Below the pieces are notes generated by a model. The model did no database searches, was not told the origin of the DNA, and saw nothing but the letters and a program-made list of their open reading frames with translations. The translations under genes were made by a program, and so were the position numbers. Shown in pieces: positions 1,839 to 7,245 of a stretch of 12,895 nucleotides of DNA; positions within the stretch are counted from its first letter, which is position 1; each line of letters begins with the position of its first letter. The stretch lies in UHGV virus genome UHGV-0182645; one strand, written 5' to 3'. Origin of the DNA: a virus.

Positions 1839-2714
1839 CTAGTCCTGCTGACAATTCAGGAACATAAACGCACGTTTGTCCGTTAAATCCGTAACATAAT
1901 ATTCACGAATACCATTCGGTTTTATGCGGCGAGCATACACAAACTTATGAACTGGCTGGTCGCTGCCATAACTAACCTCAGTGCGAAATTCATCGACCGT
2001 GCTACCATCCTTTTCTGTCTCTTTGCGTATCAGCTTATTGTTCAGAACTGGTTGAGTCTCATCCATTCCGCTAAATGCATCTTGCCCGGTACTATTACCC
2101 CGGTTGCCACGTGGTAAATCCCACGAGAAATAAGTCCCATAGTCTGTAATTACCTGATCCCACGCCCCGGCTTCATCCATATAATGACTACGCTTCCCTT
2201 GGTATGTTACGTCAACCTTACAGGAAAACGTTGGCGCGCTATTACTTGCAGCAGAGGCCGTTGAAGATTGTGTAACACTGCCATTGTTGGCATTTCCATA
2301 GTTCCAGCCATCATGCAACGCTTTAACCCACAGATTAGTCAGGGATAGCGTAACATCATTCCCCAGCGCCTGGCTGATTCGAAGCCTCTGTATCCGACGC
2401 AACCCATACTCATAGGCTTCATCGTCATTAATCACTCGCCCACGTTGAGCGGCTACCACCCCAGATTGCCACGCACGATTAATTTCACGAATAAGATACA
2501 CTTGTGGATCAACTCCGTATCTGTTGTATTCATAGTAAAGGCTCATTGCGCCATGTTGGCTCTGGTATTCATTAGCCCATGATATAACCGCGTTTCTTCC
2601 ATAATCCGCGAGCGCAGAATGACTTGACAGAAGAAGAGCAACGCCAACAGTCTTCAGTAATTTGAATCGGAATAACTTTTTAATAATACGATTGGGAAAT
2701 ATGTTTTTGCTCAC
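1839..2714 (-). CDS. secreted or periplasmic protein of unknown function, 291 aa, with predicted N-terminal signal peptide; moron-like accessory gene
   Basis: 876-nt ORF starting at GTG with GAAAGG about 9 nt upstream. N-terminus has a basic n-region (KNIFPNRIIKKLFRFKLLK), a hydrophobic core (TVGVALLLSS) and an AxA-type cleavage motif (SALA/DYG). AT-rich upstream region at 2715-2830. No family recognised. Confidence 0.6.
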   Translation of the reverse strand: MSKNIFPNRIIKKLFRFKLLKTVGVALLLSSHSALADYGRNAVISWANEYQSQHGAMSLYYEYNRYGVDPQVYLIREINRAWQSGVVAAQRGRVINDDEAYEYGLRRIQRLRISQALGNDVTLSLTNLWVKALHDGWNYGNANNGSVTQSSTASAASNSAPTFSCKVDVTYQGKRSHYMDEAGAWDQVITDYGTYFSWDLPRGNRGNSTGQDAFSGMDETQPVLNNKLIRKETEKDGSTVDEFRTEVSYGSDQPVHKFVYARRIKPNGIREYYVTDLTDKRAFMFLNCQQD

Positions 2715-2943
2715 TTTTCAACCTTTCACCACAAATCAAGACTAACAACCCAATAATAATAACTAACCACTCTGTTTTTTTGATAAGCACCAAATCGTTT
2801 ACAAAAAAAATAGCAAATGACTATTGACACTATTCTGGAAATCACAAACTGCACATAATCCATCGCGCTAACGGCTCCCGTTGAAGGTTCTTTTGACGAT
2901 TAACTTTCAGCCGAAGCGCGGTAGGGAGTCATAACGCCAAAGC

Positions 2944-2968
2944 AGGCCGCCATGTGCGGCCTTTTTTT
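2944..2968 (+). terminator. strong rho-independent terminator (stem AGGCCGC / GCGGCCT, loop CATGT, then T7)
   Basis: Perfect GC-rich hairpin followed by TTTTTTT on the plus strand. No plus-strand protein gene lies upstream of it; see findings. Confidence 0.6.
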
Positions 2969-2995
2969 GTATCCGTCATCCGTGGAGGAAGGACA

Positions 2996-3649
2996 ATGGA
3001 AAAGATCGCAATATTCAGCCTGACCACCAGCAAGCCTCAAATGCTCACTGCAATACTGAAAGACGGTGCTCTCATTATTAACGAAGTAAAACCCCTTCCC
3101 GCGTCAGCATTGGAGCAAAAGCAAAAAATTCCTCCAGCTATAGCAGCCCTGCGGAAAAGCAAATTTAAGGTACTGGTAGACGAAATTACGCCAACGATCT
3201 CCGCTGGCACCGGAGCAAGTCAGGTGACTCTCAAGACCCGTCATGCCGATGGTAGAGCAGCAATCATCGTCGGGATGGAAAGATACAGAGAGTTAAAACT
3301 CCAGAAACTATTATCCCTGCCGCAAAATAACAAAGGTGCTTTCGAAATCCCCGACTCTATCGTTGATACCGAATACAATGGTAACGGAGAAGAAGTCTAC
3401 CGGGTGAACTGGCAGGACATCAGGCCGGAACATATTCTTATGATCCTGTGTTGCTACGCGACCGTATACCACAACGTTGCCAGTGCGGATTACGTAGAGC
3501 AGATGACCGGCGCAGTCGAGAAAGAGCAAAAAACAGGCATACTCGCTTCGTTCCTGTCCATTATTGGGCATGAAAAAGTTGAAGCAGGCACCTCCCAGCC
3601 AAAGTCACTGGCTGGGAAAGAAGTTGATGAAGATACCGTGATACTTTGA
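2996..3649 (+). CDS. hypothetical protein, 217 aa
   Basis: GGAGGA at 2984-2989 lies 6 nt before ATG 2996. The track ORF begins at 2954, but that ATG sits in the loop of the terminator hairpin, so I prefer 2996. No family recognised. Confidence 0.65.
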   Translation: MEKIAIFSLTTSKPQMLTAILKDGALIINEVKPLPASALEQKQKIPPAIAALRKSKFKVLVDEITPTISAGTGASQVTLKTRHADGRAAIIVGMERYRELKLQKLLSLPQNNKGAFEIPDSIVDTEYNGNGEEVYRVNWQDIRPEHILMILCCYATVYHNVASADYVEQMTGAVEKEQKTGILASFLSIIGHEKVEAGTSQPKSLAGKEVDEDTVIL

Positions 3650-3977
3650 TCACATTAGTAGCTTTGTTAACTCCCTCAATACCAGGTAGAAGAGTAACAA
3701 AAATATTGACGCCAGTATTTGCGTGGTCAATGAAGCGTTCATAAACAGATCAATTAGCATTAATAATTCGAATATAACATCCATGTCATTCACTCCGTTT
3801 AATTTTTAATCTAATGCCAGCAAATGAAGCTGGCCCCCGCACAAAGATTAATGAAAGTCACTTGTCACCAGTGAGGGGATTTATGAACCACATCCCCCTG
3901 AACTGGTGGCCTGTCTGTTTCTCACATTTCACACCCTGCATACAGTTTCCCCCAGGTTATGACTGAGAGGCTTTGTT

Positions 3978-6533: not shown

Positions 6534-6872
6534 TCAGGCTGCTTTTTTATTCAGGTTCCGCTGAGAAATAAATTTTTCAGCAGTATTGATACGACTTAAC
6601 TCTTCCTGAACGCGCATATCATTTTCGACTTCCCACAGATCTACTGCGGTCTGAAGATTAATCCAAAAATCTACAGAAGTATCGAATGCTTTTGCCAGGC
6701 GATATGCCATATCCATCGTTAGCTTACGATTATTATTAACAAGAGCACTTACGGTGTTACGATGAACATGAAGTATTTCTGCTAACTCGTTGATCTTCAG
6801 CTCTAACGGCTCCAGGTATTCGTACAGAAGGATATCACCTACGGTCGTCGGTTTTCTGGTTGCCTGTTTCAT
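6534..6872 (-). CDS. higA: HigA-type antitoxin, XRE-family HTH, 112 aa
   Basis: AAGGG lies about 7 nt before ATG 6872. The protein shows the HigA pattern (PGDIL..EYLEPL...INELAEIL.V....VS.L.N....LT.DMA.RL...F..S..FW.NLQ) and lies immediately downstream of the HigB-like toxin gene. Confidence 0.85.
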   Translation of the reverse strand: MKQATRKPTTVGDILLYEYLEPLELKINELAEILHVHRNTVSALVNNNRKLTMDMAYRLAKAFDTSVDFWINLQTAVDLWEVENDMRVQEELSRINTAEKFISQRNLNKKAA

Positions 6873-6942
6873 TTTTTGCCCTTACTAGCGTGCGTATTAA
6901 GTGGACTCTGGTCAGAACCCGGACCGTAACCGGGAATCTGTT

Positions 6943-7245
6943 TTAGTATTTGTGAGGGTCGAGATACAAGTCCTCGGCCTTTCCGTTAACCCACTTAAAA
7001 ATTAACCTATATTGCTTATTCACCCTTACTGATGAATAGCCATTTAGCTTCCCTGACAGTTCCTCATACCGATTACCTGGTGGTGATCTTAAATCCTTAC
7101 AGGTAGTTGCGGCATTGATAATGTCCAACTTCCGTGACAATGTCATATGAATATCAGGAGGTATCTTTCTATGTGGTGTTGAAAATTCAAAAAAATCATC
7201 AAGCCACGCATCCCTGAAATCCTTTATGTTAATTTTTTTGGTCAT
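6943..7245 (-). CDS. higB: HigB-type toxin (RelE/ParE superfamily, killer-protein family), 100 aa
   Basis: C-terminal signature YEELSGKLNGYSSVRVNKQYRLIFKWVNGKAEDLYLDPHKY matches the HigB killer-protein motif (W/YR..F.F.NGDA..L.Y.DYH) from memory. Toxin-first order with the HTH antitoxin downstream. Confidence 0.85.
   Translation of the reverse strand: MTKKINIKDFRDAWLDDFFEFSTPHRKIPPDIHMTLSRKLDIINAATTCKDLRSPPGNRYEELSGKLNGYSSVRVNKQYRLIFKWVNGKAEDLYLDPHKY

Follow-up and report, generated by a model that had tools for sequence, protein, structure and literature searches.

A predicted late small RNA in the mat leader of P1-related phage-plasmids with two-site complementarity to the major capsid mRNA

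Four described systems that involve short RNAs provide a background for this work. The C4 RNA of phages P1 and P7 (Rfam RF01695), a structured phage-plasmid RNA of ~80–100 nt, arises by processing of the very transcript under its control and represses icd/ant of the immunity region; Citron and Schuster reportedly found in 1990 that it recognises its target via two short exposed segments and not through one long duplex. DsrA, RprA and ArcZ, which act in trans on rpoS and end at their own terminators, free the initiation region of this mRNA by pairing with the 5′ strand of a self-inhibitory helix in its leader. In SreA/SreB of Listeria and in rnTrpL, a promoter, a promoter-proximal structured leader and a terminator precede a gene; the gene is expressed by read-through, and the RNA released at the terminator works in trans. 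Finally, lambda PR′-6S-tR′ and HK022 put feature a late-region promoter with a short terminated transcript before the late genes, and structured RNA 5′ of a terminator. Here we describe an element with likenesses to each of these, found in a 12,895-nt stretch of the virus genome UHGV-0182645 (the window, i.e., the whole of the DNA analysed), which belongs to a D6-like, phage P1-related plasmid prophage (phage-plasmid) of Escherichia coli. It occupies ~2866–2968 on the plus strand, directly 5′ of mat, the gene for the "maturation control protein". We propose, with a probability of about 0.6, that it specifies a late small RNA that pairs with the leader of the major capsid mRNA and doubles as the leader and attenuator of mat.

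The candidate RNA resembles C4 in being a structured phage-plasmid RNA of similar size from the same genomes, the window carrying a C4 copy at 505–592, and two short pairing sites are common to both. In contrast to C4, it would be made from a late-type promoter, end at an intrinsic terminator and target the capsid mRNA, encoded 16–18 kb away; the two also lack any sequence or profile similarity. With the DsrA-type regulators it shares the predicted release of an initiation region by a trans-acting RNA with its own terminator; however, the target here is the extreme 5′ end of the mRNA, with a second site 2 nt downstream, the regulator is at the same time the 5′ leader of another gene, and activation is only a prediction and is not evident in phage P1. 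The overall layout is that of SreA/SreB and rnTrpL, from which it differs in being phage-encoded and served by a late promoter, with no known ligand or attenuation signal. Unlike lambda and HK022, it shows no sign of Q-like, N-like or put-like antitermination, it precedes mat alone and not a late operon, and what its conserved loops match is a different mRNA, not sites of RNA polymerase or of an antiterminator. In kind, it would be a small RNA that acts by base pairing and derives from a 5′ leader cut short by termination; it is outside any Rfam family.

We collected the upstream regions of mat from IMG/VR, metagenomes, plasmids and genomes by means of Mat homologues (36–100% identical). The mat loci show a constant order, namely TTGAC(A/C), a conserved box, a -10-like hexamer, a ~100-nt block, a GC hairpin with a T run, a ribosome-binding site and mat; within the block UUUUG(A/G)C and GCGCGG are invariant. 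Two metagenomic loci depart from this order: in one (L134, OJTV01000222.1) the element is disrupted by an IS1 end that cuts it within hairpin P3, just 5′ of the 3′ strand of helix P1, and in the other (L131, OGPE01003191.1) an unrelated gene replaces everything 5′ of the terminator hairpin, which it seems to use as its own terminator. A sequence-only reading of the window had suspected a plus-strand RNA of about 100 nt that ends at an orphan terminator. In keeping with this suspicion, no other part of the locus is as well conserved as ~2865–2968: in two clades the pairwise differences per site are 0.016 and 0.002 for the RNA block, as against 0.119 and 0.139 for the mat coding sequence and 0.085 and 0.124 for the promoter, i.e., the RNA is 7–70 times less variable than the mat coding sequence. 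That no plus-strand gene precedes the terminator also held up, with no open reading frame (ORF) of at least 20 aa within 2746–2951; the neighbouring small ORFs, one of 27 aa with a TTG start (2662–2745) and one of 23 aa whose ATG lies within the hairpin, are both unconserved. The element thus has the makings of a discrete unit, with a late box and -10 hexamer as its predicted promoter, a terminator and no conserved ORF.

The segment at ~2866–2968 is predicted to be a structured RNA of ~103 nt, in which a three-way junction (helix P1 and hairpins P2 and P3) is followed, after a 6-nt linker, by the terminator (P4). The fold of 2860–2970 has a free energy of -41.8 kcal/mol (z = -2.8 versus dinucleotide shuffles), seven of eight clades give an identical three-way junction and terminator in independent minimum-energy folds, and the two strands of helix P1 form duplexes at -12 to -25 kcal/mol in 13/13 clade representatives, whose sequences differ. 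A covariance model (R1) built from five E. coli-type sequences finds full-length matches in all 26 representative loci (27.7–139.6 bits, E < 2e-4) and a single copy in the D6 genome. In the alignment to R1, 89.5% of the cells are paired, compared with 77.3 ± 0.9% in shuffles and 34–51% with slid partners; 17 of the 31 pairs are changed on both sides, compared with 11.6 in shuffles (0/500 shuffles reach 17), with compensatory changes in 10 of the 12 pairs of helix P1 and changes on both sides in four of the eight P2 pairs. The model-free evidence from the helix P1 strand duplexes and the independent folds agrees with this model-based structure, and the numerous G-U pairs indicate that the plus strand is the functional one. 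Two pairings had been put forward from the sequence, of which GGCUCCC/GGGAGUC stands as the strongly covarying inner part of helix P1. The other, CGCGCU (2864–2869)/AGCGCG (2915–2920), appears in the single-sequence minimum-energy fold but is not conserved outside the E. coli-type clades: it shows one compensatory change, in the P31 clade, is absent from most clades and needs bases at or before the predicted transcription start; it is possibly a lineage-specific alternative fold or a pseudoknot. A pairing of the loop with helix P1 (UUUUGAC/GUCAUAA) was likewise discarded, being inconsistent among clades.

Searches of 2700–3020 against Rfam 15 recovered no family at gathering or permissive thresholds, the sub-threshold matches being isrK (14.7 bits against a cut-off of 50, to the terminator only) and a fragment of STnc410 (15.3 bits). 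Searches made without recourse to mat recovered the element only directly 5′ of mat homologues; these combined a gapped pattern scan, which by itself gave mostly chance matches, with the necessary filtering by covariance model, and they found a locus (L165) that the protein search had missed. A search of genome contigs with a single Mat protein returned just one close relative. Among E. coli plasmids, 101 carry the element and 102 the capsid leader, and members of the family occur in D6-like phage-plasmids of Escherichia, Salmonella, Shigella and Enterobacter, in many metagenomic relatives and, in diverged form, in P1 and Cronobacter phage JK004.

Scanning the D6 genome with the apical domain of the RNA revealed one contiguous, perfect 16-nt complement (UGAAGGUUCUUUUGAC versus GUCAAAAGAACCUUCA), which has no further match in the 91 kb. 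This complement shares its transcribed strand with mat and begins ~7 nt past the -10 hexamer of the late-type promoter of gene 23, which codes for the major capsid protein; its first base hence coincides with the predicted +1 of the capsid mRNA, 43 nt ahead of the GUG start codon. The predicted 5′ end of this mRNA is GUCAAAAG. The target falls outside the window, on the same replicon strand; in NZ_AP027678.1, the closest relative of the window, the element lies at ~51.9–52.1 kb and an intact target at ~67.9 kb, again on the same strand. A second, shorter complementarity links P3 to the same leader (site 2, Table 1), and in D6 the two sites occur together only in the gene-23 leader, the other occurrences of GTCAAAAG being within coding regions and without site 2. 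Duplexes of the whole apical domain with other D6 sequences reach -32 to -40 kcal/mol; these are long and gapped, fall at random coding sites and were judged meaningless. A 14-mer scan for the target of the L079 clade gave chance matches among those listed.

The capsid-gene loci were taken from the same contigs as the mat loci, 38 contigs holding both. These present 11 distinct combinations of small RNA and target, and 11/11 are complementary (sequences in Table 1), with cognate duplexes of -20.6 to -29.1 kcal/mol (z = -2.6 to -5.4). In 10 of the 11 contigs the leader site ranks first or second of ~10,900 windows, and in every clade site 1 starts at the predicted +1 of the capsid mRNA. Mismatches in the first 12 positions are G-U (~8 cases) or single-base bulges (indels, in two clades) and never A-C, a pattern that favours pairing between RNAs over two copies of a DNA site. 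In the D6-like clades, as well as in phage P1 and Cronobacter phage JK004, the seed is conserved and exposed, and its complementarity is kept by compensatory changes. The P2 loop further holds a YUNR-type sequence (UUGA, UUGG or UUCG), a motif typical of antisense recognition loops.

The TTGACA and CATAAT hexamers noted in the sequence-only reading are both present, separated by 24 bp, and we agree that this is too far for a standard sigma-70 promoter; the gap is filled by a 15-nt box (Table 1). The complete D6 genome has 11 copies of this box with at most three mismatches, as against 0–6 in shuffles. Six of these are on the coding strand just 5′ of late operons (mat, the R-S-U tail-fibre genes, lydA, prt/pro, pmgB/sit and upfC), each with a -10-like hexamer 3–4 nt after it, and a seventh, more diverged copy is upstream of gene 23. 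In all clades a -10-like hexamer with A2 and T6 stands at a fixed distance from the box. We define the D6-type late promoter as GGAAAT(C/A)ACAAACTG, followed after 3–4 nt by a -10-like hexamer, a form seen at 2837–2859; from the recurrence of box and -10 at the D6 late operons, we conclude that this site is a putative promoter of this class, with a predicted start near 2865–2867.

Phage P1 has 11 Lpa-dependent late promoters, whose Lpa sites combine a conserved 9-bp inverted repeat centred near -22 (AAGTNACTT) with a -10 hexamer (PMC10695390). At the equivalent site 5′ of mat, P1 has the annotated late promoter LPmat, with the -22 box AAGTGACTT and a -10; it overlaps a predicted sigma-70 promoter (Pmat in the P1 annotation), whose -35 is also TTGACA and is the positional equivalent of TTGACA in the window. 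The repeat AAGTNACTT is present at the mat and gene-23 promoters of P1 and JK004 and is not found at 2837–2851, which is therefore not a late promoter of the P1 type. By analogy, control would presumably be exercised by the D6 homologue of Lpa (orf4), which the different box suggests to differ from that of P1 in specificity. Other promoter assignments fared poorly. TTGACA is unsuited as a -35 for CATAAT: among clades the spacing between the two runs from 18 to 27 bp, with 18 bp seen in the Enterobacter-type variant alone, and TTGAC lies anywhere from 8 to 17 nt ahead of the box. A sigma-54 reading of CTGGAAATCACAAACTGCA has a GG-GC spacing of 14 nt, not 12, and an unconserved GG, and the box read as a minus-strand promoter has a poor, unconserved -10. 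Separately, the stretch from mat to the gene-26 homologue contains an exact P1-type late -22 box (AAGTCACTT) at 3855–3863; TCAT and TAATCT come after it when the minus strand is read, an orientation that would direct transcription back towards mat.

The terminator hairpin at 2944–2962 (AGGCCGC-CAUGU-GCGGCCU) with its T7 tract, which had been taken for the most canonical of the window, is indeed present and ranks second in our scan, where it has seven pairs (six G-C), a loop of 5 and the tail TTTTTTTGTA; the window has 26 terminator-like sites, compared with 12.2 ± 3.4 in shuffles. It shows the G+C-rich stem-loop directly before a U tract that is characteristic of intrinsic terminators. In the structural alignment 99.4% of the P4 cells are paired, with one compensatory pair (G-C to A-U), and a hairpin with a T run is found at this position in all clades as well as in P1 and JK004, the tail differing by clade (U7 versus UUUCGCCUUUU). 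P4 is predicted to be both the 3′ end of the small RNA and an attenuator before mat. Only 27 nt, ribosome-binding site included, separate the U tract from the mat ATG, which had been placed at 2998 and is here corrected to 2996, and the promoter scan of the window gave no promoter-like site between them. From this gap, with no room for a promoter of its own, we infer that mat must be transcribed through read-through of the terminator; this geometry points to a cis role, the attenuation of mat. Since the promoter sits between the divergent gene and the terminator, the latter falls inside the mat transcription unit, and the earlier suggestion that it merely insulates the downstream gene finds no support. 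For ~95% of the related plasmids, and likewise for phage D6, homology sets in exactly at 2824 (TTGACA), which indicates that element and mat form one module, with variable DNA 5′ of it.

In phage P1, a segment of ~115 nt (predicted RNA ~2703–2817) follows the -10 of LPmat (2691–2696), inside the annotated mat coding sequence. Its minimum-energy fold is the same three-way junction and terminator (-39.4 kcal/mol, z = -2.3), made up of the helix CGCCCGGUAC/GUACCGGGCG, the P2 loop UCCCUUUUCAAAUAU, the P3 loop GGCACA and then a hairpin with a U-rich tract. GGGGG and an ATG at 2827, from which a Mat form of 213 aa would be read, come after the terminator. The mat coding sequence of the P1 record AF234172 (2716–3468, 250 aa; locus L008) covers the junction and terminator with its codons 1–37. 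When the two Mat proteins are aligned, residue 2 of the D6 type falls on residue 40 of the annotated P1 form, and JK004 is annotated with the short Mat form. Taken with the ATG at 2827, these observations indicate that codons 1–37 are probably the RNA rather than coding sequence, and that the annotated start of P1 mat is probably 37 codons too early.

The P1 gene-23 mRNA predicted from the annotated LP23 starts GAAAAGGGAUUCACACAAGUGCC (5′ end GAAAAGGG). Its positions +1 to +12 complement GGAUCCCUUUUC in the P2 arm and loop of the P1 leader (site 1), and GUGCC at +19 to +23 complements GGCAC in the P3 loop (site 2). In JK004, GGGACUCUUUUC pairs with GAAAAGAGUUCC, and GGCAC with GUGCC at the same mRNA position as in P1; relative to P1, site 1 shows two fully compensatory changes. 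P1 and JK004 thus have the same architecture as the D6-like phages with different sequences, and their leaders are equivalent in a positional, architectural and functional sense that is borne out by synteny, the shared fold and the two-site complementarity and not by profile. The broader proposal, that P1-like phage-plasmids including P1 itself make a late small RNA from the mat leader, which licenses or tunes capsid synthesis by pairing at two sites within the ~24 nt at the 5′ end of the capsid mRNA, is one to which we would give slightly less than even odds. The RNA of about 100 nt suspected earlier is hence supported by conservation, a covarying fold, a late-promoter box and complementarity to the capsid mRNA; its place as the mat leader, the extension of the family to P1 and an identifiable target are points that the sequence-only reading did not have.

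We envisage the following course of events in the D6-like phages. The late-type promoter of mat, presumably activated by the Lpa homologue, would yield an RNA that folds as a three-way junction, with most transcripts stopping at 2944–2968. In trans, the terminated RNA would pair through sites 1 and 2 with positions +1 to +16 and +19 to +24 of the capsid mRNA, whose own promoter is of the same late class. In eight D6-like capsid leaders with the start codon set correctly, bases 3′ of or overlapping site 1 pair with the start-codon region; this helix covaries, being UUCACG/CGUGAA in D6 and CUCGCAG/UUGUGAG in the L079-type clade, the largest of the distant ones. In the free leaders the start codon has a probability of 0.00–0.07 of being unpaired, compared with 0.31–0.89 once both sites are blocked, and the folds leave the initial 12 nt of the leader unpaired and hence available for a loop-to-single-strand contact. 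Pairing would therefore open the start-codon helix and raise capsid translation, an "anti-antisense" activation as by DsrA on rpoS. On these folding models we favour translational activation by helix opening, though holding its direction loosely: the outcome might instead be a stabilised 5′ end of the capsid mRNA, and repression is also compatible with the pairing. In cis, read-through transcripts would carry the RNA as the 5′ leader of mat, with the terminator keeping mat expression low; such attenuation may make sense if Mat must be scarce.

Several points weigh against this proposal. Transcription, its start site, termination, the pairing in the cell and the direction of its effect are all inferred from sequence, and since the late box differs from the 9-bp Lpa repeat of P1, Lpa dependence in D6-type phages is an analogy. 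The capsid start codon of P1, with an unpaired probability of 0.65, is not clearly sequestered, and that of locus L434 comes out at 1.00, though with an offset that missed the actual start codon there; unmasking may hence not be a general route to activation. Because the alignment behind the pair counts had been fitted to the model, these counts are tilted towards structure, and the independent clades number a modest ~10–12. Sites 1 and 2 cannot form a single continuous duplex, which would make this a two-helix, kissing-type complex outside what the folding tools model. The covariance models R1 and R2 find no full-length match in the P1 or JK004 leaders, and the P1 small RNA/target duplex reaches only z = -1.3 versus shuffles. 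Finally, a purely cis-acting leader would equally be expected to be strictly linked to mat and to end 27 nt before its ATG.

Such a leader, in which RNA and terminator limit read-through into mat (e.g., via a protein or ligand at the junction) with no function in trans, is the alternative that fares best, though we consider it unlikely. It accommodates the constant position of the element directly 5′ of mat and the lack of room for a separate mat promoter; a riboswitch or attenuator would show much the same succession of junction, terminator, ribosome-binding site and gene, and the differing terminator tails (U7 versus UUUCGCCUUUU) look as if read-through were tuned by clade. There are also indications of an unidentified antitermination in P1 (PMC10695390). 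A structured leader with an adjacent terminator is found in all clades, without a match to a described riboswitch or leader family in Rfam, and manual inspection revealed no conserved antiterminator overlapping the terminator, from which the linker separates helix P1; it gave short GC-rich complementarity between the 5′ strand of helix P1 and the 5′ arm of the terminator, which is inconsistent. Above all, a leader acting only in cis leaves unexplained both the covariation of the P2 loop and P3 motif with the 5′ end of the capsid mRNA and the unique 16-mer complement at the +1 of gene 23.

The same complementarity could be read in the reverse direction, with the abundant capsid mRNA leader pairing with the nascent mat leader and altering its folding or termination, such that capsid mRNA levels control mat. 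Expression of mat only through read-through and the origin of both RNAs from late promoters would suit this scheme; however, the pairing sites lie at least 23 nt 5′ of the terminator stem without overlapping it, intrinsic termination needs no upstream structure, and the terminated RNA, with its closing helix P1 and terminator hairpin, looks like a stable small RNA. We hold this direction of control to be improbable. Decidedly improbable, too, is the idea that the complementarity reflects no pairing of RNAs but a DNA site, recognised by a phage DNA-binding protein or recombinase, of which one copy lies in the mat leader and a second, inverted one at the gene-23 promoter. Both copies are just 3′ of promoters of the same class, and co-evolution with one protein would also correlate their changes; against this, the differences described above are transitions that give G-U and indels that give single-base bulges, the mat-side copy lies within a hairpin whose own pairing covaries, and the copies are mutually antisense on the transcribed strand, with site 1 at the predicted +1 throughout. 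That the terminator is merely an insulator against stray transcription from the divergent region, or a leftover of an old module boundary, with no functional RNA, is highly improbable, since, for all that homology with most relatives starts at such a boundary and that the L131 hairpin seems to serve an unrelated upstream gene, the region from promoter to terminator is the least variable part of the locus, its helices covary, it is preserved from the D6-like phages to P1, and many distant loci have a separate terminator 5′ of the TTGAC promoter.

Table 1. Features of the mat leader locus (positions in the window unless stated otherwise) and sequences of cognate small RNA and capsid mRNA pairs.
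Feature	Positions	Strand	Remarks
Divergent hypothetical gene	1839–2714	minus	5′ neighbour of the element
TTGACA, -35-like hexamer	2824–2829	plus	conserved form TTGAC(A/C); marks the 5′ border of the module
Candidate late-promoter box GGAAATCACAAACTG	2837–2851	plus	15 nt; placed where P1 late promoters have their Lpa -22 element
-10 hexamer CATAAT	2854–2859	plus	predicted start ~2865–2867
Helix P1, 5′ strand (predicted)	2865–2879	plus	outer GCG-UA, inner GGCUCCC (2873–2879)
Hairpin P2 (predicted)	2882–2909	plus	2882–2889/2902–2909, 12-nt loop CUUUUGACGAUU (2890–2901)
Predicted pairing site 1 (seed) UGAAGGUUCUUUUGAC	2882–2897	plus	P2 5′ arm and loop; complements +1 to +16 of the predicted gene-23 mRNA, GUCAAAAGAACCUUCA
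Hairpin P3 (predicted)	2910–2922	plus	2910–2913/2919–2922, GCCG/CGGU, loop AAGCG; includes invariant GCGCGG (2916–2921)
Predicted pairing site 2, GCGCGG	2916–2921	plus	P3 loop and stem; complements invariant CCGCGC, +19 to +24 of the capsid leader
Helix P1, 3′ strand (predicted)	2924–2937	plus	GGGAGUC-A-UA-A-CGC; GGGAGUC at 2924–2930
Intrinsic terminator P4 (predicted)	2944–2968	plus	stem 2944–2950/2956–2962, loop CAUGU, U tract 2962–2968
mat ribosome-binding site GGAGGAAGG	2984–2992	plus	between U tract and mat ATG
mat coding sequence (maturation control protein)	2996–3649	plus	217 aa; ATG at 2996
Boxes in the D6 genome (L102/L103)	72122, 56920, 54140, 45513, 38137, 31533, 25243 (D6)	minus	box plus -10, 5′ of at least seven late operons
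Small RNA GGUUCUUUUGAC			capsid mRNA 5′ end GUCAAAAGAACC
Small RNA GGAAUUUUUGAC			capsid mRNA 5′ end GUCAAAAAUUCC
Small RNA GAGGGUACUUUUGAC			capsid mRNA 5′ end GUCAAAAGUA(A)CUCUC
Small RNA GAGGUUUUUUGGC			capsid mRNA 5′ end GCCAAAAAACCUC
Small RNA GGGUACUUUUGGC			capsid mRNA 5′ end GCCAAAAGUAUU
Small RNA AGCUUUUUCGAC			capsid mRNA 5′ end GUCGAAAAGCU

The order of features in the window is an isrK-like RNA and a C4 RNA (402–592), icd, ant, the divergent gene, the intergenic element, mat and the homologues of P1 genes 26 and 25, with further genes after them. The isrK-like RNA (402–481, 60 bits) and the C4 antisense RNA (505–592, 75 bits) lie 5′ of icd (646–861) and ant (861–1802), with which they make up a P1 immI-type immunity region. 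The divergent gene, whose product matches PHROG 13054 in its C-terminal half, varies among relatives, being simB-like in D6 and coding for other hypothetical proteins elsewhere. According to the annotation of a related plasmid and D6, a toxin-antitoxin pair of the HigB/HigA type (RelE/ParE family) is lodged among the tail genes (6534–7245, minus strand). The Mat protein belongs to PHROG 1837, to which no function is assigned, and is without a Pfam domain. Its AlphaFold model (pLDDT 79) shows a borderline likeness to the nuclease domains of large terminases and to RuvC-type resolvases (Foldseek E ~1e-3, TM 0.44–0.49); with this weak RNase H-like resemblance of the modelled fold, Mat may possibly be a nuclease.

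In the searchable literature we found no description of a mat-leader RNA and no transcriptome or reporter data on its accumulation or effect, and for P1-like phages we came across no report of such a small RNA beyond C4. The predicted origin from a late promoter, the phage's own major capsid mRNA 5′ end as the predicted target, the two-site recognition and the unrecognised presence in P1 would make this RNA unusual. Few phage-encoded small RNAs are known to control the structural genes of their own phage in trans. The target is specific and falsifiable, with base-by-base predictions for compensatory mutagenesis, and as the family reaches P1, a genetically tractable model, it is directly testable there. 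Two further outcomes suggested by this work are a corrected start for P1 mat and the definition of a D6-type late-promoter box. If the broader proposal is true, there would be an RNA-level checkpoint in virion morphogenesis, the "maturation control" locus would in part be an RNA gene and P1 Mat would be mis-annotated by 37 codons. Moreover, since D6- and P1-like phage-plasmids often carry resistance genes, such control of their capsid synthesis would bear on the spread of these elements.

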